A stretch of 64,000 nt of DNA, taken from positions 35,033-99,032 of the forward strand of contig JAHKAY010000007.1 in NCBI GenBank assembly GCA_018825785.1, in the 5' to 3' direction. This document shows positions 1,178 through 61,040 of the stretch, one piece after another (position 1 is the first letter of the stretch; each line of letters opens with the position of its first letter). This DNA is from Chloroflexota bacterium. GTDB taxonomy: Bacteria; Chloroflexota; Dehalococcoidia; JACVQG01; JAHKAY01. The notes under the pieces were generated by a model, which was given only the letters and a program-made list of their open reading frames with translations, did not search any database and was not told the origin of the DNA. The position numbers and the translations under genes are program-made.

Positions 1178-1747
1178 TCAGGGCTGCTGGCCGAGGAAGT
1201 TCTTGAGCAGGTCGTGGCCCAGGGAGGTGAGGATGGACTCGGGATGGAACTGGACCCCCTCTACCGGGTATTCCCGGTGCCTCACCCCCATTATCTCCCC
1301 GCTATCGGTGCGGGCCGTGACCTCCAGGACCGGGGGCACGCTCTCCGGCTCAATGACCAGGGAATGGTAGCGGCCGGCCTCAAAGGGGTCGGGCAGGCCC
1401 CGGTAGATGGTCCTGCCGTCATGGTGGATGAGGGAGGTCTTGCCGTGCATGGGCTTCTTCGCCCGGACAATCCTCCCCCCGAAGACATGGCCAATGCTCT
1501 GGTGGCCGAGGCACACCCCCAGGATGGGTATCGTGCTGGCAAAATGGCCGATGATGTCATTGGACAGCCCGGCCTCCAGGGGGGTGCAGGGGCCGGGGGA
1601 GACGACGATATGGCTTGGGGAGAGGGCCTCTATCTCCTCCAGGCTGGTCTTATCGTTACGGCGGACCAGGGGCTCCCAGCCCAGCTCCCCCAGGTACTGC
1701 ACCAGGTTGTAGGTGAAGGAATCGTAGTTGTCTATGACCAGGACCAT
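1178..1747 (-). CDS. trpG: Anthranilate synthase component II / glutamine amidotransferase (TrpG/PabA)
   Basis: [23 protein letters not shown]... class-I GATase signature. The track ORF starts at an upstream TTG (1765); the ATG at 1747 matches the canonical PabA/TrpG N-terminus. Confidence 0.9.
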
Positions 1748-1791
1748 GTCGGGATTATAGCACAACTCTAGCTGAAGATAAGAACACTCCT
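1748..1791 (-). promoter_or_regulatory. Extended -10 (TGcTATAAT) promoter 6 nt upstream of trpG ATG (near-leaderless)
   Basis: Reverse complement of 1748-1765 reads gtTGcTATAATcccgacATG. The extended -10 sits directly upstream of the start codon. The herA stop is at 1792. Confidence 0.5.
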
Positions 1792-3363
1792 CTATTCCTC
1801 CCAGAGGTCTTTCCTGTCCTGCTCCACACCCTTGAGCTCCGGGGGCCTCTTATAGATAGAGGTGTAGTCCCGGACCCGGACCACGACAGGGACAGGCAGG
1901 GCATCTCCGAAGACGAGGGCCTGCTGGCGGGACTCCAGACGGGAGAGGACTTTCCTGAGCTCTGTTCTTTCCGAGACCCCCGCCAGGACGCTGTCAACGT
2001 CTTTCTCGTTGTCCAGGAGGCAGGTTATCTTGCTCCCCACCTGGCTCATCACCTCCTCGTCAATGCCGGAGGGGCGCTGGTCAATGACCAGGAGGGTGAC
2101 ATATGACTTGCGCCCCTCCCGGGCGATGGTGCCGAAGATGGTCTGGCGCGAGAGCTCAGGGCTGAGGAACCGATGGGCCTCCTCTATAGTGATGACCAGG
2201 GGACGGGGATGGGGGGCCCTCTCCCCCCGGGCCCTCTCTGCCCTCTGGACATACTGGTCATGGATGCGGCGGCTGAGGAGGTTGGCCACCAGCATATAAG
2301 GGACGATGTCCCAGTAGCGGCCGAACTCCAGCACCACCGTGAGCCCCTTCTCCAGGTAGCCCAGGATACGCTCCACGGCGCTCTCCGGGGAATGGGGCAG
2401 CAGAAAGGGCAGACGCTTTAGCTGTTCCAGGCGTCGGTGGAGGTGAAGAAGGGTAGCCTCGTGCTCCTTAAGGCTTTCTGCCAGGTCCTTCACCTGAGCG
2501 GGCGAGTAGCTGAGGAAGGACTCCAGCCAGCCTTTTCCCAGGTGGCGGGCCAGGCCATAGGGGGCCTGGGCGGCCAGGTCGGTGAGGTTCAGGGTCTCCC
2601 GGAGGAGGGCGATGTCCCCGGGCTCAATCTCATCGTAGCCGATAAGGACGTTGAAGTCGGTCTTCACCCCCCTCCTCCGCGCGCTTTCCTCGTCCAGGGT
2701 GAAGACTGCCACCCGCGAGGGGAAGAGCTGTTTGAGGCCCTTGACCACCCCCCCCTCCTCCCTCTCACCCTCCCACCCGTATTCGCTGTGCATATCAAAG
2801 ACCAGGCTGGAGGCCTGGCCCCGCTGGAGGATGCCCGCCAGGAGGAGCCGGGTGAGCATGGTCTTGCCGGTGCCGGTCTTGCCGAAGATGCCCCCCGAAC
2901 GCTGGACGAACCTGTCTAGGTCCAGGCAGACCTTCACCTCCAGGTCCAGGGGGCTCCCGATATAGAAGTGCCTGTCGTCCTCAGACCCGAAGACCAGCGC
3001 TATATCCTGCTCCGACGCCTCCCGCACCAGGGAGAAGGGGGCGGGGATAGTACGGGCAGGCGGGGGGGCCTCCAGCCCCACCACCCCCAAGGCGAGCTGG
3101 GGCAGGACCTTGATGGTGCCGAAGACCCCAGTGCCGGATAGGACCCGGGCAATATAGGGGTCCGAGACATCCAGCTCCAGGCCCCTTTCCAGTGCCCCCA
3201 GTTCCACATCGGTGATGAGGCCGAAGAAGCGGCTTTTCTCCCCCTCAATGGTCACATACCTTCCGACCCCCACCGCCTCCACCGATACCCCCTCCTCCAG
3301 GCGGACCCTCAGCCCCTGGACGAGACTGCCTCCCACCACCCTCCCCAGCACTTTCCCGCTCAA
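1792..3363 (-). CDS. herA: HerA-like (DUF87/FtsK-HerA superfamily) ATPase
   Basis: Walker [10 protein letters not shown], Walker B-like [12 protein letters not shown]-terminal HAS-barrel-like region ([16 protein letters not shown]...), 523 aa as typical for HerA. Start overlaps the upstream gene stop (3360-3363), suggesting translational coupling. Confidence 0.75.
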
Positions 3364-3944
3364 GACAGCCTCCGCAGCAATGACTGAAGCCGGGGCGCAT
3401 CCCCCCGGAGGAGGAGGGTAAGCTCCTTCCCCGCCCGGAGCAGGAACTCCTCCCGGTCCTCCCGGGACCCGGCCAGATGGAGGAGAAAGGCAGGGATGAG
3501 CTCCTCGCGGGAAGGGAGGGGTGCCGTTGCCAGGGGCCCCAGAAAGTGAAGGGAAGACCCGAACTCGCCTATCTCGTCAGTCTTTGCCAGGTAGACAAAG
3601 CTGTGGAGCTTAGGGGGGCGGGGGGAAAGGGCCTGGACCAGCTTGCCCTCCACCCGGTGGCCCACTATCCAGGCCCTGAACTCCGTCCTTAGAAGGCGGG
3701 AAAGCTGGGGGTGGGAGCGATAGACCCCCTCCTCTTCCGTCTCCTCCCGGCCCCGGGCCACGGGACGCCTCCCTGGCTCCAGGGGGCCGGTCTCGGCGTG
3801 ATAGACCACGGCGAAGATATCCGTCTCCCCCTCCCTGGTCCTCACCAGGGAAGCGAAGGGAGGGGGCTGATGGAGCTCATAGCACTGGGCCGCGAACTCC
3901 TGCGTGGAGACCTGGACCACCTCGCCGATTCTGGTCGCTTGCAT
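3360..3944 (-). CDS. Hypothetical protein (194 aa), translationally coupled to herA; possible HAS-barrel-like N-terminus
   Basis: ORF MQATRIGEVVQVSTQEF... tightly packed between the dsrE-like gene (stop 3946) and herA (4-nt overlap). I recognise no family. Confidence 0.5.
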   Translation of the reverse strand: MQATRIGEVVQVSTQEFAAQCYELHQPPPFASLVRTREGETDIFAVVYHAETGPLEPGRRPVARGREETEEEGVYRSHPQLSRLLRTEFRAWIVGHRVEGKLVQALSPRPPKLHSFVYLAKTDEIGEFGSSLHFLGPLATAPLPSREELIPAFLLHLAGSREDREEFLLRAGKELTLLLRGDAPRLQSLLRRLS

Positions 3945-3945
3945 T

Positions 3946-4422
3946 CTAGATGAAAAGGGTCACCTGGGCTTTGGAGGCATATTCCAGAAAAGCGGCGGCC
4001 CCGGCACACTCCGTCCCCTCCACCAAGTCCTCGTCTTTAATGCTCATCATCCCCATGGTGGTGGAGCAGGCGAAGAGCCGGACCCCCCACTTGCGGCAGA
4101 GGTCCAGCAGCTCGGGGACGGTGGGCATGTTCTGTTTCTTCATCATCCGCCTCATCATCCAGGTAGCCACGGCCGTCATCCCGGGGATGACCCCCAGGAT
4201 GTTGGGCACGGGCAGCGGGGCGGCGGGATTGGCAAGGGAGGCTACCTTCAGCCGGTGCACCTTCCTCTTGTTCACGATGTCAAAACCATAGAAGGTAAAG
4301 AAGATGCCCACCTCCCAGCCCATGGACGCAGCGGTGCTGGCTATGATGAGCAGGGCATAAGCCATGTCCAGGGTCCCCTTGGAGGCGACAAGGGCCACCC
4401 GCTTGCGCTCTTTCTCCGCCAT
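3946..4422 (-). CDS. DsrE/DsrF-like family sulfur-relay protein
   Basis: 158 aa. RVALVASKGTLDMAYALLIIAS...GVIPGMTAVATWMM...LFACSTTMGMM resembles DsrE/DsrF-like (YchN-fold) proteins that pair with TusA. It directly abuts the tusA-like gene. Confidence 0.65.
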   Translation of the reverse strand: MAEKERKRVALVASKGTLDMAYALLIIASTAASMGWEVGIFFTFYGFDIVNKRKVHRLKVASLANPAAPLPVPNILGVIPGMTAVATWMMRRMMKKQNMPTVPELLDLCRKWGVRLFACSTTMGMMSIKDEDLVEGTECAGAAAFLEYASKAQVTLFI

Positions 4423-4680
4423 CTAGACCTCCCGGGCTTTCTGAATAAAAAAGGTGTAGAGGCCCTTCCCTTCTTCCTCGGCCCGGAGGAGCTTGTTCCC
4501 TGTCTCATTGCACCAGGCCGGGAAGTCCATCCTGGAGCCGGGGTCCGTGGCCAGGACTTTAGCCACCTGGCCAGGTTTCATCTCTTCAAGGGCCAGCTTG
4601 GCCTTGACCACCGGCATAGGGCAGAGAAGGCCCCTGGTATCGACTACTCTATCGGCCTTTATGGTCTCCATCATTTTCAC
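4423..4680 (-). CDS. tusA: TusA-like sulfurtransferase (SirA/YedF/YeeD family)
   Basis: 85 aa. DTRGLLCPMPVVKAKLALEEM is the canonical CPxP TusA motif. Confidence 0.8.
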   Translation of the reverse strand: MKMMETIKADRVVDTRGLLCPMPVVKAKLALEEMKPGQVAKVLATDPGSRMDFPAWCNETGNKLLRAEEEGKGLYTFFIQKAREV

Positions 4681-4686
4681 CTCTTC

Positions 4687-5880
4687 CTACACCCACCGGG
4701 TGCGTTTGCTCTGGTTTTTCTGGGAGGCGGCGGAGGGGAGGTAGCCCACCACCTCTCCCACCAGGGACCAGAAGGCCTCCCGGTCCTGGGCGCTGACCAC
4801 CGCCTGCTCATGGGCCTCGACCAGGGCCACCGGGTAGCCCCCTCCCCTTCTCACCTGGTCAAAGACCAAGGCATGGGCCAGGTCCACCAGCTCTTTCCTC
4901 TGGACCACCCAGGAGGGGACCTCCACCCTGGCCATCTCCTCCTCCCCCTTCAGATAGAAGAAGAAGACCTGGTGGCGGCCGTAGTGCTCCTCCACGACGG
5001 AGGAGCGGGTGAGGAAGAGGGGGGAGCGCTCACCCGCTTTCAGGAGGGGGGCAAAGAGGGCCCTGTCCTCCACCCCGGCTACCCCATTACACTCCCTGTC
5101 CTTCTTTCCCCGGCAGTGGCGGTCGCAGTCGGGGGGCTCATAGGGGCAGAGGGCCACCCTAAGGGCATTCACCACATCGGTGGAGCGGGGGAGGCTGATG
5201 TAGCTGGCCAGGGCCAGGGGGCCTTTCCGGGCCATGGCCTCCATCCCGTCCAGAATTGGGACCAGGCCCCTCTCCAGGAAGGCCTGGCGGACAAACTCGG
5301 GGCAGGCCTGCCCCGCCAGGCCCCACAGCACCAGGGAGCCGTCCAGGAGGGCCAGGACGGGAAAAGGCCCCTCCTCATTCAGGGCCTCCGCCAGGAAGGC
5401 CACCTCCTCCAGCCACCTCCTGGCCGCCAGGAGGGCCCCTTCCACAGGCTCGGCCCTCAGGCCCGAGGGGTCGGGCATAACCAGGTCCTCCTCCCGGGAG
5501 AAAAGCCTGGCCCTCCGGACAAGCCCGGCGGAGGGTTCCCGGCCGTAGTGCAGGCGGGCCAAGCCCCCGTTGATGAGGTAGCAGCGCACCGGCATATGCC
5601 GGTCAAGGGCAATTTGGGAGCCGTCCACCCCCAGGACGCTGAACTGGGAAGGAAGGGGCGGGAGGGGGTGGGACTCCCCCAGCCCCTCCACCAGCCCGGC
5701 CACCAGCCAGGTGGTCCGGGCGGACTGGCATTTCTCCCCCAGCCCCTGCCAGGCCCCCTGGTGGTGCTGGAGGGTCTCCAGGGCCAGAGCCAGACGGACT
5801 TCGGCCTCCTTCCAGCCATCCTTGAGCCGGGAGGCCATTTCCTCTATTTGGGGAACCACCTGGCCCAGGTCCAGGCCCAT
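4687..5880 (-). CDS. nurA: NurA-like 5'-3' nuclease domain protein
   Basis: 397 aa. VLGVDGSQIALDRHMPVRCYLINGG matches the conserved NurA DGS start motif. Same operon as the HerA-like ATPase. Start ATG at 5880. Confidence 0.65.
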   Translation of the reverse strand: MGLDLGQVVPQIEEMASRLKDGWKEAEVRLALALETLQHHQGAWQGLGEKCQSARTTWLVAGLVEGLGESHPLPPLPSQFSVLGVDGSQIALDRHMPVRCYLINGGLARLHYGREPSAGLVRRARLFSREEDLVMPDPSGLRAEPVEGALLAARRWLEEVAFLAEALNEEGPFPVLALLDGSLVLWGLAGQACPEFVRQAFLERGLVPILDGMEAMARKGPLALASYISLPRSTDVVNALRVALCPYEPPDCDRHCRGKKDRECNGVAGVEDRALFAPLLKAGERSPLFLTRSSVVEEHYGRHQVFFFYLKGEEEMARVEVPSWVVQRKELVDLAHALVFDQVRRGGGYPVALVEAHEQAVVSAQDREAFWSLVGEVVGYLPSAASQKNQSKRTRWV

Positions 5881-5919
5881 GTTCAGATTATATCATGGCC
5901 CCTTCCGCAGGGGCAGAGT
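5881..5919 (-). promoter_or_regulatory. Extended -10 promoter (TGaTATAAT) directly upstream of nurA ATG plus small GC hairpin after trpB2 stop
   Basis: Reverse complement reads ...gccccugcggaaggggccaTGaTATAATctgaacATG. The hairpin follows the trpB2 stop and the extended -10 ends 6 nt before the nurA ATG, consistent with a leaderless or near-leaderless transcript. Confidence 0.5.
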
Positions 5920-7275
5920 TCATCCAGGCACCTGCGGCAGGTGGGCCAGGGCCTCTTCCACCTTCTCCTTGGGATAGGCAAAGTCTGCGAGCTTCCCGGT
6001 GAGGTATTCGTCGTAGGCCTGGAGGTCAAAGTGGCCGTGGCCTGAGTGGGCCAGGAGGATGACCTTCTTCTCCCCCGTCTGCTTGCACTTCAGGGCCTCA
6101 TCTATGACCACCCGGATGGCGTGGGCAGGCTCCGGTCCGGAGAGGATGCCCTCGGTCCGGGCGAAGGTCACCGCGGCCTCAAACACCGGGTTCTGGTGCA
6201 CCGCCACGGCCTCCACCAGTTTCCGGTCGTAGAGGTAGCATATGATGGGGGCCATGCCGTGATACCTCAGGCCTCCCGCGTGGATGCGGGGCGGCATGAA
6301 GGTATGGCCCAGGGTGTACATCTTCACTATGGGGGCCAGGCCAGCAGTATCACCGTAGTCAAAGCGGTAAAGTCCGCGGGTGAGGCTGGGGCAGGCCTCA
6401 GGCTCCGCGCAGATTATCCGCGGGTTCCGCTTCCCCTGGAGCTTTTCCCTGACAAAGGGCAGGAACATCCCGGCGAAGTTACTCCCCCCGCCCACGCAGC
6501 CCACAATGATGTCGGGATACTCCCCCGCCTTCTCCATCTGGAGCATGGCCTCCTGCCCGATGATGGTCTGGTGGAGGAGGACATGGTTCACCACTGAGCC
6601 AATTGAGTACTTGGTGTCGTCGTGGGTGGCGGCGTCCTCTACCGCCTCGCTGATGGCGATACCCAGGCTCCCCGGGTTGTCCGGTTCCTGGGCCAGGATA
6701 GACCTTCCGGTGTTGGTATCCTGGCTGGGGCTGGGGACCACCTGGGCACCCCATGTCTCCATCAGGATGCGGCGGTAGGGTTTCTGGTGATAGCTCACCC
6801 TGACCATATAGACCTTGAGCTTCAGGCCCATAAACTGGCAGCCCATGGCCAGGGCACTGCCCCACTGTCCCGCTCCTGTCTCGGTGGCCAGGCGCTTAAC
6901 GCCTTCAACCTTGTTGTAGTAGGCCTGGGCCACGGCGGTATTGAGCTTGTGGCTCCCCGCCGGGCTCACCCCCTCATACTTGTAGTAGATGTGGGCCGGG
7001 GTGCCCAGGGCCTTCTCCAGCCTGCGGGCCCGGATGAGGGGGGTGGGCCGCCATAGCTTGTAGACCCCCAGGACCTCATCGGGGATCTCAATGAGGCGCT
7101 CCTTGCTGAACTCCTGCTCGTCACAGGCTGCAGCAAAGAGGGGCGGGGGAAGCCTGGTGGGCTCCTTGGTCCCGGGGTGGAGCATGGGTGGCATGGGGGT
7201 GGGCAGGTCGGGGAGAACATTGTACCAGTGGCTGGGCATCTCCTTCTCAGTGAGGATAATCTTGGTTGCCTCCAT
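5920..7275 (-). CDS. trpB2: Tryptophan synthase beta chain, TrpB2-type (long form)
   Basis: 451 aa with the characteristic TrpB2 N-terminus (…[13 protein letters not shown]…) and the PLP lysine region ([11 protein letters not shown]). Confidence 0.85.
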
Positions 7276-7293
7276 GTTACCTCCTTTTCTTAC

Positions 7294-8070
7294 CTATATT
7301 GCTGAGTCCAGTGCCTCTCTCAGGCCCCGGACGAATTCCCCCAGCTTTCCCAGGCCCGGGTCATCTTTGATAAGCTGGACTATCCGGCTGCCAACGATGA
7401 CCCCGTCGGCCACACGGGCCACTCTCTTTGCCTGCTCCGGGCCGGCGATGCCGAATCCAACGGCCAGGGGGAGCGAGGTTTCCCTTCTCACCCGTTTCAC
7501 AAAGGCTTCCAGCCCTTTGGGCAGGGCCTCCCGGGGGCCGGTGACCCCAGTGAGGGAGACCAGATAGATGAAGCCCCGGGACCTCCCCGCAACCAGCTTT
7601 ATCCGGCTTTCCCCCGAGTTGGGGGCCAGGAGATAGACCAGGTCCAGGCCGTTTTTCTCACAGGCCCTCCCCAGGTCCACTCCCTCCTCGGGGGGGAGGT
7701 CGGGGACAATCAACCCATCCACTCCACTTTCGGCACAGGCCCGGCAGAAAGCAGAGAGGCCGAAGTGAAAGACGGGATTGTAGTAGGTCATGAAGACAAG
7801 GGGCAGGGCTACTTTCCTACTGAGCCGTGAAGCTATCTCCAGGGCCAGCCTCGGGTTCATCCCCCGGGAGAGGGCCTGAAGGCTCGCCTCCTGGATGGTA
7901 ACGCCATCGGCAAGGGGGTCGGAGAAAGGGATGCCCAGCTCCACCATGTCCGCCCCCCACTCCTCCAGACGCGGTACCACCTCCAGCGCTGTCTCCGGGG
8001 AGGGATAGCCCAGGGTGATGTAGGGGATGAGGGCCTTGCGGGAGGCAAAGGCCCTTTCAATACGGCTCAT
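7294..8070 (-). CDS. trpA: Tryptophan synthase alpha chain
   Basis: 258 aa. ALIPYITLGYPS...GADMVELGIPFSDPLADG is typical of TrpA. Confidence 0.9.
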   Translation of the reverse strand: MSRIERAFASRKALIPYITLGYPSPETALEVVPRLEEWGADMVELGIPFSDPLADGVTIQEASLQALSRGMNPRLALEIASRLSRKVALPLVFMTYYNPVFHFGLSAFCRACAESGVDGLIVPDLPPEEGVDLGRACEKNGLDLVYLLAPNSGESRIKLVAGRSRGFIYLVSLTGVTGPREALPKGLEAFVKRVRRETSLPLAVGFGIAGPEQAKRVARVADGVIVGSRIVQLIKDDPGLGKLGEFVRGLREALDSAI

Positions 8071-8120
8071 GGTGTCCTGCCGTCGGATACCTCACCCCCT
8101 GGCCCCCTCTCCACAGCCTG

Positions 8121-9323
8121 CTACTCTTGCCCCGACGGCATGCCGCCCAGGGCCTCGGCCACGATGTGGATGTCCTTGTCCCCCCGGCCCGAGAGGCAGA
8201 CAAGGATGAGCCTGTCCGGGGAGAGCCTTTTGGCTATCCGGCAGGCATGGAAGAGGGCGTGGGCGGGCTCCAGGGCGGGGAGGATGCCCTCGGTCCGGCA
8301 GAGGAGCTGGAAGGCATCCAGCGCCTGGGCATCGCCCACGGCCACATACTTCACCCTGCCAGTGTCCTTGAGATAGCTGTGCTCAGGCCCCACCCCCGGG
8401 TAGTCCAGGCCAGGGGCGATGGAATGGGTGGATGAGACCTGGCCGTATTCATCCTGGAGTAGATAGGAGCGCGCTCCGTGGAGGGTCCCCACCTCCCCCT
8501 TGACCAGGGAGGCGGCGTGCCCCCCGCTCCTCAGGCCCTTCCCCGCCGCCTCCACCCCGATGAGGTTCACATCGTTGTCCTCAAGAAAGGGATAGAAGAT
8601 GCCGATGGAGTTGGAGCCACCCCCCACACAGGCCACGATGTAGTCCGGCAGGCGGCCGTATTCTTTCTGCACCTGCTCGCGGCTCTCGCGGCCGATGACG
8701 CTCTGGAAGTCCCGGACCATCGTGGGGTAGGGGTGGGGCCCCACCACCGAGCCCAGGAGATAGTAGGCCTCCTGGACATGGGTCACCCAGTAGCGGATGG
8801 CCTCGTTGATGGCATCCTTGAGGGTCTTTGTGCCCGAGGCCACAGGTCGCACCTCCGCCCCAAGGAGCCTCATTCGGAAGACGTTGGCCGACTGGCGTTC
8901 TATGTCGTCCTCGCCCATGAAGACGAGGCACTTCAGGCCCATCTGGGCGCAGACGGCGGCGGTGGCCACCCCGTGCTGGCCGGCCCCTGTCTCGGCCACC
9001 ACCAGTCTCTTGCCCAGCCGCCGGGCCAGGAGCGCCTGGCCCAGGGCGTTGTTTATCTTATGGGCGCCGGTATGGCAGAGGTCCTCCCGCTTGAGGAGGA
9101 TTCTGCCCCCTCCCAGCCTTTCGGTGAGGGAGCGGGCAAAATAGAGGGGCGTGGGCCGGCCTGCATAGTCCCGGAGCAGGCCCTCCAGCTCCTGCCAGAA
9201 GGCGGGTTCCCTACGGGCCCGCGAGTACTCCCGCTCCAGCTCCTGGAGTGCGGGGATAAGCGTTTCGGGGACATAGCGGCCCCCATAGGGGCCAAAATAG
9301 CCCCTCCGGTCAGGTAAGGACAC
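8121..9323 (-). CDS. trpB: Tryptophan synthase beta chain (TrpB1)
   Basis: 400 aa. [12 protein letters not shown]...[29 protein letters not shown]...[11 protein letters not shown]. Confidence 0.95.
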
Positions 9324-9933
9324 CCTCAGCCTCCATTACTGCCTTGAAGAAGGCTTTGAGCTTCTCCGGGTCCTTCTTCCCGGGCCGGGCCTCCACCCCG
9401 CTGGAGACATCCACCCCGTAGGGCCTGACCAGCTCTATGGCCCGGCGTACATTCTCAGGGTTGAGGCCCCCGGACAGGATGATAGGCCCGTACTTCCTGG
9501 CCTGGAGGGCTATTTCCCAGTCAAAAGTCCGGCCCGAGCCCCCCGCCACACCCGGGACATAGCTGTCCAGCAGGTAGGCCGCCAGCTGGTAGCGGGGGAG
9601 CTGAGAAAGGACCCCGTCATCCCGCACCCGGAAGGCCTTGACGACACGCGGAGAAAGCTCCTGACAGTATTCCGGGCTTTCCTCGCCGTGGAGCTGGGCC
9701 AGGTCCAGGTGACACCCTGCCATCACCTCTCTTACCCGGGCCAGGGGGGCATCCACAAAGACCCCCACCTTGGTCACCAGGGGGGGAAGGCGGGAGATGA
9801 TGCGGGATGCCGTTTCCGGGTCTATCTGCCGGGGGCTGGAGGCGAAGACAAAGCCCAGGGCATACGCCCCGGCCTCCAGGGCCACAAGGGCGTCCTCCAG
9901 GCTGGTGATGCCGCAGATCTTAACCCTGACCAC
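9310..9933 (-). CDS. trpF: Phosphoribosylanthranilate isomerase
   Basis: 207 aa. [30 protein letters not shown] is the TrpF N-terminus. Confidence 0.9.
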
Positions 9934-10696
9934 AAAGCTCCCTGAGCTTTTTTTCAGGGTCGGGGGCCAGGACCAGGGCCTCCCCCACCAGGAAGGCCCT
10001 CACCCCCGATTTCTTCAGGACTTCAATGTCCTTTTGACTCTTGATCCCGCTCTCGCTCACCACCAGGACCCCCTTCGGTATAAGGGGCAGGAGCCTGAGG
10101 GTCGTATTTATGTCAACCAAGAAGGTGTCCAGGTCCCGGTTGTTTATCCCTATAAGCCGGGCCCCCGCATTGAGGGCTGTCCTTACCTCCTCCCTCCGGT
10201 GCATCTCCACCAGGGAGGCCATTCCCAGGTTGTGGGCAAGGGCCATCAGCTCCGCGAGTAATCTTTCCCCCAGGGCTCCCGCGATGAAAAGGACAGCATC
10301 CGCCCCGCTGCCCCTGGCCTGGTAGAGCTGGTAGGGGTCCAAAAAGAAGCCCTTGGCCAGCACCGGGAGGGGGGTGGCCTCCCGGGCCCTGGCCAGGTCC
10401 TCAAAGCTACCCTTAAAGAACTCCGGCTCGGTGATGACGGAGAGGGCGACCGCCCCCGCCTGCCAGTAGGACCGGGCCAGGAGTGCGGGGTCCAGATGAG
10501 AACACAGGTCCCCCCGGGAAGGTGAAGCCCTCTTGATTTCAGCGATGATGGCTGTGCCTCCCCCCTTCAAAGCGGCGGCAAAGTCGCGGGGCGGCGAGGC
10601 CTTGAGAGCCAGGGCCTCCAGTTCCTTCTGGGGAAGATGGCTCTTTGCCTCCGCCAGCCTCCGCCGGGTGGAGCGGAGGATATCCTCCAGAATCAT
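9920..10696 (-). CDS. trpC: Indole-3-glycerol phosphate synthase
   Basis: 258 aa. IIAEIKRASPSRG...SVITEPEFFKGS...LIGINNRDL are TrpC motifs. Confidence 0.9.
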   Translation of the reverse strand: MILEDILRSTRRRLAEAKSHLPQKELEALALKASPPRDFAAALKGGGTAIIAEIKRASPSRGDLCSHLDPALLARSYWQAGAVALSVITEPEFFKGSFEDLARAREATPLPVLAKGFFLDPYQLYQARGSGADAVLFIAGALGERLLAELMALAHNLGMASLVEMHRREEVRTALNAGARLIGINNRDLDTFLVDINTTLRLLPLIPKGVLVVSESGIKSQKDIEVLKKSGVRAFLVGEALVLAPDPEKKLRELCGQG

Positions 10697-11712
10697 TTCC
10701 CCAGCCCCTTGGTAAAAGCCACCAGCTCCTCCAGCTTCTTCCTGGCAGCCCCGCTGTCTACGGCCCAGGCTGCCAGGCCCAGGCTATGTCTGAGGTCGGG
10801 CGCCTTCCCCGCCGCGTATAGCACCGCCCCCGCGTTGAGCAGGACCACATCCCTTCTCGGCCCCTTTTCCCCCCCCAGCACCGCCAGGGTAATGCGGCAG
10901 TTCTCCTCCACACCCCCCCCAACTAAATCCTGAATGCGGGCCCGCGGCAGGCCCAGTTCCTGCGGGTCCTGGGTATAGGTCCTCACCCTGCCCCCCTCCA
11001 GCTCGCTAATCTGGTTCGGGCCGGTGGTGGAGAGCTCATCCAGGCCATCTCCGCTATTGACCACCAGGGCCCTGCGGGTGCCCAGTTGAGAGAGCACCTG
11101 GGCCAGGGGGGCAGTGAGCTCCGCGCTGAAGACCCCCAGGAGCTGAACGGAAGGGGAAGCAGGATTTACCAGAGGCCCCAGGATGTTGAAGATGGTGCGC
11201 ACCCCAAGTTCCTTTCTCACCGGGGCAGCATATCTCATGGCGGGGTGGAAGTGAGGGGCAAAGAGGAAGCCTATCCCCACCTCCTCTATACAGCGGGCCA
11301 CCTGCTGGGGGCCCAGGTCTATCTTCACCCCCAGTGCCTCCATGAGGTCCGCCGAGCCGCAGCGGGAGGACGCGGAGCGGTTGCCGTGCTTGGCCACCGG
11401 AAGGCCCGCCCCGGCCACTACCAGGGCGGCGGCGGTGGAGATGTTGAAGGTGTGGGCCCCGTCCCCGCCTGTCCCACAGGTATCCACAAGGCCCTCACGC
11501 CCCACCTCCACCCTGACGGCATGGGCCTTCATAGCCCGGGCGGAGCCGGCAATCTCCTCTACCGTCTCCCCCTTCATCCTGAGGGCGGTGAGGTAGCCCG
11601 CTATCTGCGCAGGGGTGGCCTCCCCGTGCATAATCTCCCCCATCACCCCCTCCGCCTCCTCCGCGCTGAGGGACTGCCTTTCTACCAGGCGGGCAATGGC
11701 GTCCTTTATCAT
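10693..11712 (-). CDS. trpD: Anthranilate phosphoribosyltransferase
   Basis: 339 aa. VDTCGTGGDGAHTFNISTAAALVVAGAG...AKHGNRSASS. Confidence 0.9.
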   Translation of the reverse strand: MIKDAIARLVERQSLSAEEAEGVMGEIMHGEATPAQIAGYLTALRMKGETVEEIAGSARAMKAHAVRVEVGREGLVDTCGTGGDGAHTFNISTAAALVVAGAGLPVAKHGNRSASSRCGSADLMEALGVKIDLGPQQVARCIEEVGIGFLFAPHFHPAMRYAAPVRKELGVRTIFNILGPLVNPASPSVQLLGVFSAELTAPLAQVLSQLGTRRALVVNSGDGLDELSTTGPNQISELEGGRVRTYTQDPQELGLPRARIQDLVGGGVEENCRITLAVLGGEKGPRRDVVLLNAGAVLYAAGKAPDLRHSLGLAAWAVDSGAARKKLEELVAFTKGLGK

Positions 11713-13163
11713 ATGCCGGCCTCCGCCATCTCCACCGCTCTGGCCAGGGCCTCCATCTTCTTCATGCTCTCGTCATACTCCCCTTCAGGGCGGGAGTCGG
11801 CCACAATGCCTGCCCCTCCCTGGAGGTAGACCGTATCGCCCTTTTTCACGATGGTGCGGATGGTGATACAGGTATCCATACTGCCGTCAAAGCCGAAATA
11901 GCCCACCGCCCCGCCGTAGGGGCCCCGGCGGGTCCCTTCCATCTCGGTGATTATCTCCATGGCCCTTATTTTGGGGGCCCCGGTAAGGGTCCCGGCGGGG
12001 AAGCAGGAGCGGAGTAGGCTGAAGGCATCCTCCCCCTCCCTCAGCTCCCCCTGGACCGAGGAGACTATGTGGATAACATGGGAATACTTCTCCAGGCCCA
12101 TATAGAGGGGCACCCCCACCGTGCCGAAGCGGCAGACCCGCCCCAGGTCATTGCGTCCCAGGTCCACCAGCATCACATGCTCCGCCCTCTCCTTGTGGTC
12201 GGCGAGGAGCTCCCGTCCCGTGGCCTCGTCCTCCTCGAGGGTCCTGCCCCTGGGCCGGGTGCCGGCGATGGGACGGGTCTCCGCCTGTACGCCCTCCAGC
12301 CTTGCCAGCATCTCCGGAGAAGAGCCGATGAGCTGAAAGGGGCCGAAGTCCATGTAGAACATGTAAGGGGAGGGGTTGAGCCTTCTCAAGGCCCGGTAGA
12401 TGGCGAAGGGATGGGCCTGTGTCTGACGCCTCAGCCTGTGGGAGAGGACCACCTGGAAAACGTCCCCGGCGAGGATATACTCCTTGGCCCTCCTCACCCT
12501 CTCCATGTACTCCTGAGGGGTAACATCGGATTTCAGGCCACCCCCTTTCCCCAAGGAGGGGAGCCCTTCCGGGAGCAGTGGTGAGGCCAGGGCCTCCATC
12601 ACCTCCTCTATCTTCTCCACCCCCTCCTGGTGGGAGTGACAGCAGGAGAGGACCTTCATCTGCTGCTTCACATGGTCAAAGATGACCAGGGTATCCACGA
12701 ACATGAAGACGGCATCGGGGAGGCCCAGCTCGTCCCGGGGGCAGGGAGGGAGGTCCTCAAAATAGCGGACCGTGTCATACCCCAGGTAGCCCACCGCCCC
12801 GCCCATGAACCGGGGCATCCCCGCTACCCTCACTACCTGGTGGCCCTGGAGAAGGTCCCTGAGGAGGTGGAGGGGGTCAAAGCTCGCGGAAAGGGACACC
12901 TTCTCCACCTGCGCCCCCCTGCGGACCACCGCCTCCTCCCCCCTCACCTCCAGGACCAGAGATGGGGCATTTCCGATAAAGGAGTAGCGGCCCACCTGCT
13001 CCCCCTTTTCCACACTCTCCAGGAGGAAGGAGGGGGCCTGGCGGCAGAGCTTGAGGAAAACGGAGACGGGCGTCTCCAGGTCTGCCCGCAGCTCCCGGAA
13101 AACCGGGAAGAGGCGGCCATCATAGGCCTTCTGAAAAGTGGCCAGGTCCGGTATGTACATCAA
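11709..13163 (-). CDS. trpE: Anthranilate synthase component I
   Basis: 484 aa; chorismate-binding family C-terminus (...GTLTGAPKIRAMEII...). The track start is TTG at 13163. An ATG one codon downstream (13160) follows a GAGGGG RBS. Confidence 0.9.
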   Translation of the reverse strand: MMYIPDLATFQKAYDGRLFPVFRELRADLETPVSVFLKLCRQAPSFLLESVEKGEQVGRYSFIGNAPSLVLEVRGEEAVVRRGAQVEKVSLSASFDPLHLLRDLLQGHQVVRVAGMPRFMGGAVGYLGYDTVRYFEDLPPCPRDELGLPDAVFMFVDTLVIFDHVKQQMKVLSCCHSHQEGVEKIEEVMEALASPLLPEGLPSLGKGGGLKSDVTPQEYMERVRRAKEYILAGDVFQVVLSHRLRRQTQAHPFAIYRALRRLNPSPYMFYMDFGPFQLIGSSPEMLARLEGVQAETRPIAGTRPRGRTLEEDEATGRELLADHKERAEHVMLVDLGRNDLGRVCRFGTVGVPLYMGLEKYSHVIHIVSSVQGELREGEDAFSLLRSCFPAGTLTGAPKIRAMEIITEMEGTRRGPYGGAVGYFGFDGSMDTCITIRTIVKKGDTVYLQGGAGIVADSRPEGEYDESMKKMEALARAVEMAEAGI

Positions 13164-13430
13164 GACCCCTCAAAAACTAAAGCCCCACGCCCGAAGGGGC
13201 GAGGGGCTCTCGCGGTGCCACCCTTCATTCTACTCTTCTCGGGTACCTCAGGATACCCTGGGCCTTTAACGGTGCCCCTCCGGCAAGGCCTACTCAGTCT
13301 CCCTTTCGGTTTGCGGCTCCCCGGTCCATTCAGCCCCCGCCCTGGCGCCGGCTCACACCTTCCCCGGCTCTCTGGGCCAGGGCCCCTGGGGCCTACTAGT
13401 CCGGTTCCCAGCCTTTACGATATTGACTTG
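13164..13430 (-). promoter_or_regulatory. T-box riboswitch leader (Trp specifier UGG) controlling the trp operon
   Basis: On the minus strand, the T-box sequence AAUGAAGGGUGGCACCGCGAG is the reverse complement of 13210-13232. The specifier loop GCUGAAUGGACC has a UGG codon (rc of 13326-13328) followed by a purine. An intrinsic terminator sits immediately upstream of the trpE RBS. A candidate promoter TTGACA(rc 13459-13464)-N17-TAAGAT is present. Confidence 0.75.
13171..13210 (-). terminator. T-box terminator hairpin plus U-run just upstream of trpE
   Basis: Minus-strand RNA GAGCCCCUCGCCCCUUCGGGCGUGGGGCUUUAGUUUUUG: GC stem, then a U-tract. The 5' arm overlaps the T-box antiterminator sequence. 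Confidence 0.7.
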
Positions 13431-13547
13431 TCCGCATCTTAAAGCCTGGCCTCCCCTTTGTCAAGTTTCTCCCTAGGACAGGCTGACACGGTTGGGGTAT
13501 AATATGGCCTCAAGAGACACCAGAAGATAGCTCATTAGGAGGCCGAC

Positions 13548-20936: not shown

Positions 20937-21920
20937 CTATTCAAAACCTTCCAGGAATGCTTTTACATTCTTGCCCAGGACCTGCTGGTTGTAGCCCCCT
21001 TCCAGGACGGCAAACCTCTTGCCCCCCGAGTTTCTCTCGGCAGCCTCTTTAAGCAGCCTGCCAATTGTTGTGAAATCTTCAGTTTCCAATACTCCTGCTC
21101 CGCCCTCTTCCTTTGCCCCATCAAAGCCGGCCGATACGGCCAAGATATCGTAATCAGTTTTCCCTTTGAGAAAGTCTTCCAGGCTTTCCAGTTGTTGAGT
21201 TCTATCCTCTAACTCACTTGGCAAATCATAGAAGGTAACCCTTCCATCATCGCGAAATATGGCTTCTGTCCCATCTCCAGGATGCACATCAAAGTCCACA
21301 ATCAAGGCCCTCTCTATTTTCTTCTCATCAAGCAGTTTCGCGACCGCAATGGCGATATTATTGAGGTAGCAATGGCCATAAGAGGAATCAGCACTGGCAT
21401 GACTGCCTGGTGGCCTGATCAGAGCAAAAGTGACCTGTCCCTGCACCGCTAGCTCGGCAGCCAAGATTGCTCCCCCGGCTGCCAGGGGAGCAATCCTATA
21501 AAGCTCGCCCGTAAAGGGAGAAGCACCTCCAGCCGCACCGTGTGCGAGAACCTCGCCAGGGTCCAGAAAAGTGCGACCAATAAGCGACTGTGTATGAACT
21601 GCTCTAATATCTTCTTCTTTGGCTGGTTCGGGTTTAACGAATTCATAGAAGCCTTGAAGTTCCTGCAAGATGGCTTGAATTCGCCCTGCCTCGGCAGCCG
21701 GGTCGAAAGAATAGACCAGCAGATAATCTGGGTGAAAAATTACCTTGATTCCGGTTGCTGAAGGTGTCAAACCACCGGAGGCCCCGGCCTTTGGTGTCGG
21801 GGCAGGGGCTGCCTTTGCACTACAGGCGGCGGGCAAACTCAGGGCCAGCATCAAGGCCATTGCCCACAATAATCTATTCATAACTATACTTCGTTGATAA
21901 GCCAGCGGATGTTGTCCCAT
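20937..21920 (-). CDS. Secreted histone-deacetylase-like (arginase/deacetylase superfamily) protein with divergent active-site motifs
   Basis: Signal peptide, then IRPPGSHA (canonical RPPGHHA), GHCYLNNIAIA (canonical GFCYVNDI), DFDVHPGDGT (canonical DxDxHHGDG), and LEGGYN (GGY Tyr retained). Confidence 0.65.
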   Translation of the reverse strand: MGQHPLAYQRSIVMNRLLWAMALMLALSLPAACSAKAAPAPTPKAGASGGLTPSATGIKVIFHPDYLLVYSFDPAAEAGRIQAILQELQGFYEFVKPEPAKEEDIRAVHTQSLIGRTFLDPGEVLAHGAAGGASPFTGELYRIAPLAAGGAILAAELAVQGQVTFALIRPPGSHASADSSYGHCYLNNIAIAVAKLLDEKKIERALIVDFDVHPGDGTEAIFRDDGRVTFYDLPSELEDRTQQLESLEDFLKGKTDYDILAVSAGFDGAKEEGGAGVLETEDFTTIGRLLKEAAERNSGGKRFAVLEGGYNQQVLGKNVKAFLEGFE

Positions 21921-25737: not shown

Positions 25738-26094
25738 TCAGCGAAGCCGCAGGAGCGCGTAGAGCAGCAGGGTCAGGGATACCCCTGCCACACCGGCCAT
25801 CAGGTCATTGAAAGACGAGGACCGATAGGGGAGGAGCTTCTGGGCAGCCTCTGAGGACACTGCCAGGAAAAGCCCGAATATCAGCCCGAACAGGATTCGC
25901 ATTCTCATGGGTTTAAGGAAGTCGGCGCTATAGGCTGCCACGAGGCCGGTAATCCCAAAAAGACCAAAATGGGCAACCTTATCCCAGTGGCTGAAGGCTC
26001 CAGCGGTGGGCAAGCCAACATCTCCGACAGGGCCAAGGAGCAGCCCGAGAAGGAAGAGAGTCCACAGGCCAAGGAGGACCATCTTTCGTTTCAT
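25738..26094 (-). CDS. VanZ-like family membrane protein
   Basis: MKRKMVLLGLWTLFLLGLLLGP...WDKVAHFGLFGITGLV...; ATG at 26094 overlaps the metF stop (ATGA). The track ORF has a spurious 71-codon 5' extension. Confidence 0.65.
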   Translation of the reverse strand: MKRKMVLLGLWTLFLLGLLLGPVGDVGLPTAGAFSHWDKVAHFGLFGITGLVAAYSADFLKPMRMRILFGLIFGLFLAVSSEAAQKLLPYRSSSFNDLMAGVAGVSLTLLLYALLRLR

Positions 26095-27020
26095 GAGGGC
26101 CTGACTTCTGGCCGGGGGTAGAGGCCGGACTTTTCCACCAGAGTGGGGACTGCTTCCTCCTCCCAGCCCACCGCCATGATGTGGATTCCGTGGACGCCGG
26201 GGACCTGCCTTAGCTGCTCTATGTCCTCCAGGGCAATCTCTATCCCCTCCTCCTTGGCGACCTTGGCCCCCTTCATCCGCTCCACAACCTGGTCGGGCAC
26301 AAAGCACCCAGGGACGGAGCTCTGCATATATCGGGCCATACCTGCCGAACGGAGGGGGATGATGCCCGCCAGGATATGGACCTGTTTGTCCAGGCCCCTC
26401 TCCCGGACCATCTCCATAAACCGGGCGAACTTGGGTATATTGTAGACCGCCTGGGTCTGGATGAACTGGGCCCCCGCCTTCACCTTTTTGGCCAGGCGGA
26501 CCGCCCTGAACTCAAAGGGGTCGGCGAAGGGGTTCTCCGCCGCCCCGATGAATATGGGCACCTCCCCCGAGATGTCATCGCCGCAGAGGAACTTTTTCTC
26601 GTCCCGCATCTTCTTGAGGGCAGCGATGAGCTGGATGGAGTCCAGGTCAAAGACATTCTTGGCCGTGGGGTGGTTGCCGAACATCTGGTGGTCCCCGCTA
26701 AGGCAGAGGAAGTTGCGGATGCCCAGGGCTATGGCCCCCAGGACATCGCTCTGGATGGCGATGCGGTTCCTGTCCCGGCAGACAATCTGCATAACCGTCT
26801 CCACTCCCACCTGGCGGAGGAGGGCACACCCCGCCAGGCTGGAGAGGCGGACGATGGCGGTCTGGTTATCGGTGACATTCAGGGCATCGCAGTAGTCCTT
26901 TAGGCGGGTGCCCTTCCTGGTGACCAGGACGGGGTCGGTCCCCTTGGGCGGGCCCACCTCAGAGGTGACGGCGAATTGCCCCGCCTCCAGCACCCGTTGG
27001 AGCCTGCTTACAGGTTCCAT
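26091..27020 (-). CDS. metF: Methylenetetrahydrofolate reductase (MetF; MTHFR catalytic subunit)
   Basis: 309 aa matching the MTHFR fold. Followed by a metV-like gene, as in MetFV-type MTHFRs. Confidence 0.8.
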   Translation of the reverse strand: MEPVSRLQRVLEAGQFAVTSEVGPPKGTDPVLVTRKGTRLKDYCDALNVTDNQTAIVRLSSLAGCALLRQVGVETVMQIVCRDRNRIAIQSDVLGAIALGIRNFLCLSGDHQMFGNHPTAKNVFDLDSIQLIAALKKMRDEKKFLCGDDISGEVPIFIGAAENPFADPFEFRAVRLAKKVKAGAQFIQTQAVYNIPKFARFMEMVRERGLDKQVHILAGIIPLRSAGMARYMQSSVPGCFVPDQVVERMKGAKVAKEEGIEIALEDIEQLRQVPGVHGIHIMAVGWEEEAVPTLVEKSGLYPRPEVRPS

Positions 27021-27021
27021 C

Positions 27022-48554: not shown

Positions 48555-48604
48555 CTATTCTAGTTTCCCCACCCCTGCCAGTAAAGCCCTGTTATAATGG
48601 CGGC

Positions 48605-61038: not shown

Positions 61039-61040
61039 GC

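Follow-up and report, generated by a model that had tools for sequence, protein, structure and literature searches.

A NurA-HerA operon of Dehalococcoidia with a HAS-barrel gene directly before herA and a tusA-dsrE2 pair in a variable slot

Gene content of the locus

The window, that is the whole 64,000-nt stretch of DNA analysed here, carries five co-directional genes on the minus strand between trpB2 and a trpG/pabA-type gene, in the order given by an earlier sequence-only reading. The features of the locus are as follows.

13192-13418, minus strand: T-box leader, specifier UGG (Trp), upstream of trpE (Rfam RF00230)
11709-13163, minus strand: trpE
10693-11712, minus strand: trpD
9920-10696, minus strand: trpC
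9310-9933, minus strand: trpF
8121-9323, minus strand: trpB
7294-8070, minus strand: trpA
5920-7275, minus strand: trpB2 (NCBIfam TrpB-like model, 716 bits)
5878-5895, minus strand: extended -10 TGATATAAT, then 6 nt, then the nurA ATG
4687-5880, minus strand: nurA, NurA-family nuclease gene, 397 aa (Pfam NurA, 1.1e-26)
4423-4680, minus strand: tusA, 85 aa from a GTG or 83 aa from an ATG at 4674 (Pfam TusA, 4.4e-26)
3946-4422, minus strand: dsrE2-like gene, 158 aa (Pfam DrsE_2, 3.2e-44)
3360-3944, minus strand: X, 194 aa (no Pfam match)
1792-3363, minus strand: herA, 523 aa, TTG start (Pfam DUF87, 2.1e-27; HAS-barrel, 5.1e-08)
1745-1762, minus strand: second extended -10 TGCTATAAT, then 6 nt, then the amidotransferase ATG
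1178-1747, minus strand: trpG/pabA-type glutamine amidotransferase (Pfam GATase, 7.7e-58)
48590-48607: extended -10 of equal geometry, before polA

The trpE-D-C-F-B-A-B2 operon (5920-13163, minus strand) lies upstream of nurA, with 39 nt between trpB2 and nurA. Within the module the genes are tightly packed, with gaps of 6 nt (nurA to tusA), 0 nt (tusA to dsrE2) and 1 nt (dsrE2 to X), while the TTG start of herA and the stop codon of X share 4 nt (a gap of -4); 44 nt separate herA from the amidotransferase gene. Two 4-nt overlaps had been read in the module, and only that of X/herA is there, the others being trpE/trpD and trpD/trpC. On the plus strand, an ORF of 713 aa (3904-6045) runs antisense to the end of trpB2 and to nurA, tusA, dsrE2 and X. 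It is dismissed as an artefact of high GC content, since each of the five genes on the sense strand is backed by a family match or by homologues.

Promoters and neighbouring operons

The arrangement of an extended -10, 6 nt and an ATG occurs three times in the window, where chance alone would give 0.16. The elements before nurA and before the amidotransferase gene are both kept in related loci L005 and L092 despite differing flanks, and that of the amidotransferase gene is kept in L092/L093 too, although a gdh gene is inserted upstream. The spacing of the nurA promoter is the geometry predicted for a leaderless mRNA, and tusA-dsrE2 are predicted to be co-transcribed from it. The proposed independent transcription of the five genes as one unit behind an extended -10 thus gains support from both the promoter match and its conservation.

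The T-box leader matches RF00230 over the full model length with 79.4 bits (E 1.1e-17), a score obtained in an E-value search and below the gathering score of 93; at the gathering threshold, Rfam gives no match in the whole window. A tRNA search of the whole window found none. A promoter-like TTGACA-17-TAAGAT is located at 13464..13436, ahead of the leader. At the other end, the amidotransferase matches the NCBIfam aminodeoxychorismate/anthranilate synthase component II. Its gene is found repeatedly downstream of herA, and many distant relatives show nurA...X-herA followed by the amidotransferase with no trp operon at the site. The adjacency of trp and nurA is confined to the window's sub-clade. 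The module had been taken for a cassette inserted into the trp operon. This is probably not so, because the linkage of herA to the amidotransferase is broader than that of trp to nurA, and because trp has its T-box leader and trpG its own promoter. The T-box-controlled trp operon and the own-promoter amidotransferase are probably neighbours, and not one split operon.

NurA, HerA and the stand-alone HAS-barrel protein X

Searches with Pfam and NCBIfam profiles uphold the family calls for NurA, TusA, DsrE, HerA and the trp genes. NurA matches PF09376 with 94.3 bits (cut-off 21) over positions 2-254 of the 254 of the model, and has no match among the sequences of solved structures (PDB). HerA scores above the cut-off of PF01935 (DUF87) and carries a Walker A motif (GKTGTGKT, residue 161) and a Walker B motif (VITIEE, residue 390). 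Its N-terminal HAS-barrel (PF09378, residues 7-59) reaches 33.3 bits against a cut-off of 25.2. The best NCBIfam match (NF040937) has 97 bits, below the cut-offs of 800-970 bits of the equivalogs for DSB-repair HerA and anti-phage HerA, and HerA is classified by these profiles as a distant HerA/FtsK-type hexameric ATPase, outside every curated NCBIfam equivalog. By sequence, its closest solved relative is the DSB-repair HerA of Sulfolobus (4d2i, 7.6e-21). In the window, nurA and herA belong to one operon, being co-directional, with gaps of at most 6 nt, one promoter, and three genes between them.

The third of these intervening genes encodes X, a 194-aa protein composed of a HAS-barrel and a helical bundle, without an ATPase domain. 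A conserved Arg-rich loop, PGRRPxARG, occupies residues 57-65. X belongs to no Pfam family and a sequence-profile search against the PDB returned nothing useful. Its top structural matches, however, are all HerA, namely the N-terminal parts of HerA chains, in support of the earlier description of the 194-aa protein as HAS-barrel-like. A recent duplication of the N-terminus of its own HerA was also considered as the origin of X and rejected, the BLASTP match being not significant (E 0.49) and the likeness structural only.

X shows the traits that mark its family: a length of ~190-220 aa, a HAS-barrel with a helical bundle, the PGRRPxARG loop, and a position directly upstream of herA. The last holds in every related locus with room for X, and the 4-nt stop/start overlap of X and herA is possible in 74/88 loci. 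X is found in several phyla, and the adjacency of X and herA also occurs in one distant 4.9-Mb genome; among the relatives of a distant member of the X family, source names include Gemmatimonadetes, Latescibacteria, and Entotheonellaceae. Titles and abstracts of the HerA/NurA papers listed by a literature search mention no stand-alone HAS-barrel partner, and a literature search on HerA in Dehalococcoidia yielded only irrelevant papers. As read from these genomes, the constant and previously undescribed trait of the operon is that X is encoded just before HerA.

Related loci and the interval between nurA and X

The comparison set comprises about 90 related loci, mostly from Dehalococcoidia/Chloroflexota MAGs (80 species-level loci). 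Orthologues of nurA lie upstream of X-herA in 53 of them, at a distance from X of 20-7706 nt with a median of ~1 kb. The expectation that HerA-NurA pairs are normally adjacent fails in this clade. The gap is filled with diverse cargo, as its 71 ORFs hold 68 Pfam families, none found in more than 4. Examples include glutaminyl cyclase, LOG, GNAT, SMR, and flavodoxin, as well as IS200 and DDE transposases and HicA. In L003, a rhodanese, another sulfurtransferase, is located directly upstream of X. The interval is best read as an insertion-tolerant slot for functionally unrelated genes in different species. Around it, many species share conserved flanks, with a histone-deacetylase-like gene upstream and the amidotransferase and ftsY downstream. 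These flanks, at a fixed chromosomal position, suggest that the nurA...X-herA module is inherited vertically as part of the core genome.

NurA-X-HerA might serve anti-phage defence and not repair, with the nurA|X slot as a hot spot resembling a defence island. Many PADLOC HerA models match HerA (best 1e-33, generic only), the slot cargo includes the transposases and the HicA toxin, and a MmeI-type restriction-modification methyltransferase directly follows herA in L001/L010. Furthermore, in structural comparison X is as close to the HerA of Sir2-HerA and DUF4297-HerA systems as to repair HerA. However, the chromosomal position is fixed, with flanks conserved across many species, the cargo is mostly metabolic, no Sir2, DUF4297 or other known effector is present, and PADLOC gives no match to NurA, X, TusA or DsrE2. 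A defence role is considered unlikely.

The tusA-dsrE2 pair

TusA matches PF01206 with 91 bits and has the CPxP active-site motif as CPMP at Cys20; with the NCBIfam TusA equivalog it reaches 51.7 bits, under the cut-off of 78. DsrE2 matches PF13686 (DsrE/DsrF/DsrH-like fold) with 151 bits against a cut-off of 25, and NF047629 of NCBIfam with 155.2 bits, under the cut-off of 210. By these scores it is placed as a DsrE2-like relative, not as the curated equivalog.

Comparison of the trpB2-trpG junction among relatives, proposed by the sequence-only reading, finds the pair in the slot only in the window's sub-clade, of genus level (L007, L092, L093, and L094), where three of four lineages keep it tightly packed. 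The fourth, L005, reads trpEDCFBA-B2-nurA-X-herA-GATase, with a 78-nt spacer between nurA and X. This spacer joins the tusA ribosome-binding site and 4 codons in frame to the ~17 final codons of dsrE2, and thus represents the 21-codon remnant of an in-frame tusA-dsrE2 deletion. A recent insertion of the pair in the window lineage was rejected on this ground, L092-L094 carrying the pair as well. Every gene has a dN/dS of 0.09-0.23, and so do nurA, X, and herA of the pair-less lineage, which indicates that purifying selection on these three persists after the deletion.

In the wider neighbourhood search, the recurrence of TusA/DsrE beside HerA/NurA is borne out within the sub-clade, and not beyond it: the pair is absent from the slot in all 80 species-level related loci and in more distant ones. 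Elsewhere in Chloroflexota, tusA-dsrE2 sits in sulfur-assimilation neighbourhoods, with DsrE2 65-77% identical. It is found beside ThiF/ThiS/sulfite reductase/PAPS reductase/ATP sulfurylase in L097, beside Rrf2/ThiF/PALP/rhodanese in L098, and, in L096, ~15 kb from X-herA on the contig carrying L003. TusA/DsrE had been put forward as belonging to the machinery of a variant HerA-NurA module. Four observations speak against it, namely the absence from the 80 loci, the unrelated cargo, of no common theme, filling the slot elsewhere, the in-frame loss in L005, where nurA, X, and herA stayed intact and constrained by purifying selection, and the portability of the pair, with its sulfur-assimilation contexts. 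Most likely, tusA-dsrE2 ride in a variable slot as passengers and persist as a working pair of genes. Their retention in three lineages fits hitch-hiking, and it fits a lineage-specific functional link too.

Such a link could take the form of a sulfur-coupled defence or repair module of the sub-clade, in which TusA-DsrE2 persulfide would feed a nucleic-acid modification (phosphorothioation, base thiolation) that NurA-X-HerA writes, reads or spares. The single promoter and the 0-6 nt gaps of the five-gene operon, the purifying selection on tusA-dsrE2 in three lineages, and the rhodanese adjoining X in L003 are in line with this view. So is the precedent of TdpABC, a HerA-like ATPase/nuclease pair working with DNA phosphorothioation, TdpA (PDB 8wet) being among the structural and sequence matches. 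Besides the four observations above, two more count against it. No DndC/SspD/TdpC/PAPS-reductase-type enzyme or cysteine desulfurase was found by Pfam among the scanned ORFs of the window, several of which have no match. Moreover, HerA is far closer to Sulfolobus HerA than to TdpA (2.6e-09). This module is judged very improbable.

The two genes may also be linked to the others by co-regulation only, as sulfur carriers for the rebuilding of Fe-S or thio-cofactors expressed with DNA-repair genes under stress. The shared leaderless promoter, the lack of an internal terminator, and the retention in three lineages would fit, whereas the L005 deletion and the absence elsewhere show no general need; predicted from sequence alone, co-regulation looks identical to neutral hitch-hiking. 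We regard it as quite improbable. A further reading is that TusA/DsrE2 were recruited as working parts of NurA-X-HerA in the sub-clade, supplying sulfur for nucleic-acid modification or for a sulfur-dependent switch read by the nuclease or translocase. On this view, L005 would have lost the function secondarily, and X would be an obligate third subunit, defining a new class of HerA systems in bacteria with three components; this is very improbable.

Proposed organisation of the NurA-X-HerA operon

The preferred reading, with a probability of about 0.7, is that of a chromosomal, vertically inherited NurA-HerA nucleic-acid-processing operon with an X-herA core, in which tusA-dsrE2 is a passenger and not a subunit. 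The translationally coupled X and HerA hexameric ATPase would form the constant core, with NurA encoded upstream. X may assemble at the HAS-barrel side of the HerA ring, to which NurA docks in solved complexes, either on it or together with it, and could thereby adapt or gate the docking of NurA or the entry of DNA. HerA would then feed translocated DNA to the NurA nuclease, and the ends would be resected.

To our knowledge, nearly all that is known of bacterial NurA-HerA biology comes from Deinococcus and Thermus. In hundreds of bacterial species, mainly Dehalococcoidia, herA appears translationally coupled to an unannotated gene for a stand-alone HAS-barrel protein, and this protein could alter the docking of NurA on HerA in them. 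We found no description of an accessory protein like X, either for NurA-HerA or among anti-phage HerA systems. The link between sulfur relay and HerA is most likely a passenger insertion, and so, unless more evidence emerges, not a lead towards a new sulfur-dependent DNA system.

Comparison with known systems

A NurA-HerA end-resection system is marked by a 2:6 NurA:HerA complex whose nuclease activity on DNA ends is driven by ATP. Archaeal herA and nurA genes are linked to mre11-rad50. This linkage was not found here, neither among the Pfam matches listed for the related loci nor among the window genes scanned. We know of no stand-alone HAS-barrel partner described for the archaeal HerA-NurA systems. 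These include the closest solved HerA by sequence, that of Sulfolobus (4d2i), and the N-terminal parts of archaeal HerA (Sulfolobus 4d2i; Thermococcus kodakarensis 9x1l/9x1m) are the best structural matches of X.

The D. radiodurans NurA-HerA end-resection complex (PDB 7f6d, 7wrw; PMC9960219) shares with the present operon a NurA-family nuclease, a HerA with HAS-barrel and Walker A/B motifs, and a co-directional gene arrangement within one operon. There, the NurA dimer docks on the HAS-barrel side of HerA (PMC9960219). In contrast to D. radiodurans, X always precedes herA here, and nurA is usually parted from herA by X and variable cargo. At E<=1e-3, D. radiodurans HerA gives no sequence match to this HerA.

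As far as we know, TdpABC is the only precedent for the idea of a sulfur modification coupled to HerA, and TusA/DsrE proteins are not part of Tdp. The likeness lies in the HerA-like hexameric ATPase TdpA, the nuclease partner, and the sulfur-based DNA modification. The TdpABC of thermophiles (PDB 8wet/8wfd), as cited in PMC12914056, is phosphorothioation-based. In contrast to the present operon, Tdp needs the phosphorothioate synthase TdpC, none being seen in the module or among the scanned window genes, and the sequence likeness between HerA and TdpA is weak.

The rhd-tusA-dsrE2 and dsrE3A-dsrE2B-tusA sulfur-relay sets (PMC4175335, PMC11094781, PMC3397948) have in common with the pair a TusA, with its CPxP cysteine, adjoining a DsrE2-family protein, a two-gene unit that recurs across Chloroflexota. 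Known tusA-dsrE2 sets accompany Dsr or sHdr sulfur-oxidation genes, whereas those of the Chloroflexota relatives go with assimilatory sulfate reduction and ThiF/ThiS genes, and the present pair is enclosed by a nurA-herA operon and adjoins no gene for a sulfur enzyme.

Finally, the anti-phage Sir2-HerA/Nezha and DUF4297-HerA systems have a HerA-family ATPase as well, and PADLOC HerA models match the present HerA. In contrast to these systems, no effector lies next to herA here, and the partner of HerA is NurA together with X, at a conserved core-genome position.

Gene Order and Families

The module is composed of five genes, nurA, tusA, dsrE2, X, and herA, located between trpB2 and the gene of a trpG/pabA-type glutamine amidotransferase, as the sequence-only reading had described. 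The whole order trpE, trpD, trpC, trpF, trpB, trpA, trpB2, nurA, tusA, dsrE2, X, herA, amidotransferase is on the (-) strand, and the assignments of NurA, TusA, DsrE, and HerA to their families are supported by Pfam:

5920-7275 (-) trpB2, NCBIfam TrpB-like PLP enzyme, 716 bits
4687-5880 (-) nurA, 397 aa, Pfam NurA 1.1e-26 with the whole model covered
4423-4680 (-) tusA, Pfam TusA 4.4e-26, CPMP cysteine motif
3946-4422 (-) dsrE2, Pfam DrsE_2 3.2e-44
3360-3944 (-) X, 194 aa, no Pfam match
1792-3363 (-) herA, 523 aa, Pfam DUF87 2.1e-27 and HAS-barrel 5.1e-08
1178-1747 (-) glutamine amidotransferase, Pfam GATase 7.7e-58

Both Walker motifs are present in HerA (A, GKTGTGKT; B, VITIEE). HerA, TusA, and DsrE2 score under all NCBIfam equivalog cut-offs and are thus distant members of their families. 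The successive junctions from nurA to herA have spacings of 6, 0, 1, and -4 nt, and the module therefore contains a single 4-nt overlap (X/herA), not the two read initially. The G+C content of the tusA-dsrE2 pair (57% and 61%) is somewhat lower than that of nurA, X, and herA (64-68%). A 713-aa open frame at 3904-6045 (+) runs antisense across the region from X through dsrE2, tusA, and nurA into the end of trpB2. As each of the five sense genes is backed by a family or by homologues, this frame is most likely an artefact of high GC.

Elsewhere in the window, an RNase H domain and MoaC are fused in one 292-aa protein (61014-61892, +), a fusion also found in another Chloroflexota genome (L098 10461-11489). 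At 26091-29999 (-), consecutive genes encode MetF (methylene-THF reductase), a MetV-like partner, and a 767-aa HdrA/MvhD-like flavoprotein with Fe-S domains, a row that recalls electron-bifurcating MTHFR complexes.

X and Its Pairing with HerA

The X of the window is identical to a protein of the Chloroflexota MAG GCA_043814405.1 (locus L007). A word-indexed search returned 562 homologues, and searching one genome from each species placed X in 327 of them; the 80 loci with the highest scores, nearly all from Dehalococcoidia/Chloroflexota MAGs, were fetched. When 1.84 billion representative proteins were searched with a profile, 1009 clusters came up, almost all 190-220 aa long, and no X-ATPase fusion occurs among the 150 clusters listed. 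Querying with a distant member, the X of the genome that holds L099, reached proteins source-labelled Gemmatimonadetes, Latescibacteria, and Entotheonellaceae (including P0448, P0458, P0508, and P0523), many of which carry a precomputed HAS-barrel match.

All fetched loci were searched using the window proteins. Wherever the locus has room, herA lies immediately downstream of X, and in 74 of 88 loci the two could share a 4-nt stop/start overlap. The same pair with its 4-nt overlap is found in a distant 4.9-Mb genome (L099 10001-12216), where no nurA was found within 10 kb upstream. This strict adjacency, together with the start/stop overlap, supports a putative stoichiometric partnership of X and HerA.

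The AlphaFold2 model of X, based on 22 aligned sequences, is confident (pLDDT 84, pTM 0.80) and displays an N-terminal beta-barrel (residues 5-119) followed by a C-terminal helical bundle (122-193). A loop, PGRRPxARGxEE (residues 57-68), has low model confidence, yet is almost invariant. The best structural matches align over 113-138 residues. The top 50 Foldseek matches are all HerA (50/50). At sequence level, X and the HerA encoded next to it show no significant similarity. From its fold and these matches, X is predicted to be a stand-alone counterpart of the N-terminal part of HerA, with the ATPase missing. In solved complexes, the NurA dimer docks onto the HAS-barrel face of the HerA hexamer (PMC9960219). 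From this, we infer that X would assemble on the same face, where it may adapt or gate NurA docking or DNA passage.

A Variable Cargo Slot between nurA and X

Upstream of X, nurA was located in 53 non-redundant loci, at a distance of 20-7706 nt (median ~1 kb), with only 8 gaps shorter than 250 nt. In the loci L012-L091, the cargo of this interval is diverse: 71 ORFs of at least 100 aa match 68 Pfam families, none of which occurs in more than 4 ORFs. Examples include glutaminyl cyclase, LOG/lysine-decarboxylase-like, GNAT, SMR, flavodoxin, IS200 and DDE transposases, HicA, SDR, and HAD. At E<=1e-3, none of the 80 species-level loci gave a match to TusA or DsrE2. A rhodanese (sulfurtransferase) gene is located directly upstream of X in L003 (2814-3245), and a tusA-dsrE2 pair on the same contig (L096) lies ~15 kb from the L003 X-herA pair; this could be chance, or hint weakly at a link to sulfur.

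History of the tusA-dsrE2 Pair

The order nurA-tusA-dsrE2-X-herA occurs in three lineages of the window sub-clade (X at least 85% identical): the window and L007, L092/L093, and L094. A fourth lineage, L005, has the order trpEDCFBA-B2-nurA-X-herA-GATase-ftsY, with only 78 nt from nurA to X. This spacer keeps the ribosome-binding site of tusA with its four initial codons (GGAGGTGAGAATGATGGAAACC), which run in frame into the ~17 final codons of dsrE2 (GGCGCCGCCTTTCTGGAATATGCCTCCGAGGCTCAAGTCACCCTTTTTATTTAG), forming a 21-codon fusion remnant (MMETGAAFLEYASEAQVTLFI, L005 9926-9999). The event in L005 thus reads as a loss, not a gain: the remnant places the pair in the common ancestor of the sub-clade, with a later deletion in L005. 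Purifying selection acts on every gene (dN/dS 0.09-0.23), including the retained pair (tusA 0.18-0.22, dsrE2 0.12-0.15) and, after loss of the pair, nurA, X, and herA of L005 (0.15-0.23).

DsrE2 has 2944 homologues (word-indexed search), those at 65-77% identity belonging to Dehalococcoidia and other Chloroflexota. In the three other contexts read, tusA is each time immediately before dsrE2:

L096: radical-SAM gene and TRAP transporter adjoining tusA-dsrE2
L097: ThiF, ThiS, sulfite reductase, TusA, TusA, DsrE2, PAPS reductase, ATP sulfurylase, APS kinase
L098: Rrf2, ThiF, PALP enzyme, TusA, DsrE2, rhodanese

Taken with the literature on TusA/DsrE sulfur relays (PMC4175335, PMC11094781, PMC3397948), these contexts point to tusA-dsrE2 as a portable unit, usually found amid sulfur assimilation and thiocarboxylate chemistry.

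The pair had been proposed, as a speculative idea, to be integrated in the HerA-NurA machine. Functional coupling of TusA-DsrE2 to NurA-X-HerA via sulfur would fit its retention in three lineages and the rhodanese adjoining X in L003, and has a precedent in TdpABC (cited in PMC12914056), where a HerA-like ATPase/nuclease pair can work with DNA phosphorothioation. We consider it very improbable, however, given the natural deletion of the pair in L005, its absence from 80/80 species-level loci, and the miscellaneous cargo that fills the same slot in other species; furthermore, no DndC/TdpC-type enzyme or cysteine desulfurase was found among the window genes scanned.

The trp Operon and Flanking Genes

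More distant relatives have a histone-deacetylase-like gene, nurA, cargo, X, herA, (pabB), amidotransferase, (pabC), and ftsY in this order, without a trp operon near nurA...X-herA. The herA-amidotransferase linkage is present in roughly a third of the loci with enough downstream sequence, while the trp-nurA linkage is found only in the window sub-clade (L005, L007, L092). The features upstream of nurA in the window are:

20937-21920 (-) histone-deacetylase-family gene, ~15 kb upstream of nurA
13464..13436 (-) promoter-like site TTGACA-17-TAAGAT, upstream of the trp genes
13192-13418 (-) T-box leader before trpE, with UGG (Trp) specifier and terminator hairpin, full-length RF00230

The T-box leader scores 79.4 bits (E 1.1e-17), under the Rfam gathering score of 93, and is therefore missed by a default Rfam search. 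The histone-deacetylase-like homologue is immediately upstream of nurA in the distant relatives, whereas in the window the trp operon, an 841-aa flavoprotein, and recF lie in between. This ~15-kb separation points to a rearrangement by which the trp block became a neighbour of nurA. By synteny, a cassette splitting the trp operon, as first proposed, is the less likely history; the likelier one has the trp block arriving upstream of a nurA...X-herA-amidotransferase block that is older.

A glutamate dehydrogenase (gdh) gene is observed between herA and the amidotransferase gene in two lineages (L092 5836-6900; L003 5533-6576), making this junction variable too; in L001/L010, the genes found there are an MmeI-type methyltransferase gene and one of 274 aa.

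Extended -10 elements are found ahead of three start codons of the window:

5878-5895 (-) TGATATAAT, 6 nt, ATG of nurA
1745-1762 (-) TGnTATAAT exactly 6 nt before the ATG of the trpG/pabA amidotransferase
48590-48607 (+) TGnTATAAT exactly 6 nt before the ATG of polA

An extended -10 placed 6 nt ahead of the ATG is the geometry of leaderless mRNAs. Its 3 matches in the window, against 0.16 expected by chance, suggest that this organism may use such mRNAs. The elements of nurA and the amidotransferase gene are kept in L005 and L092/L093, even where gdh has altered the sequence upstream. From this geometry and conservation, the five genes appear to form one transcription unit, in keeping with the autonomous unit proposed from the element before nurA, and the amidotransferase gene appears to belong to a separate one.

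Comparison with Known NurA-HerA Systems

For NurA-X-HerA, repair-type DNA processing is the more probable role, ahead of defence. Its fixed position and conserved flanks across many species favor a housekeeping role, as do the core-chromosome surroundings (recF, comEC, polA, fpg, recX, recA, dnaN in the window), and the HerA sequence is closest to the Sulfolobus repair HerA (7.6e-21, vs 2.6e-09 for TdpA); NurA and X, moreover, have no PADLOC match. Defence is favored by generic PADLOC matches of HerA, by mobile and toxin genes within the slot cargo, and by the restriction-modification methyltransferase that immediately follows herA in one lineage (L001/L010).

The region is a variant of known NurA-HerA systems. 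In the literature searched, no description was found of an invariant X-HerA pairing or of a cargo slot between nurA and X; these two are the new elements of the region, and deserve follow-up.
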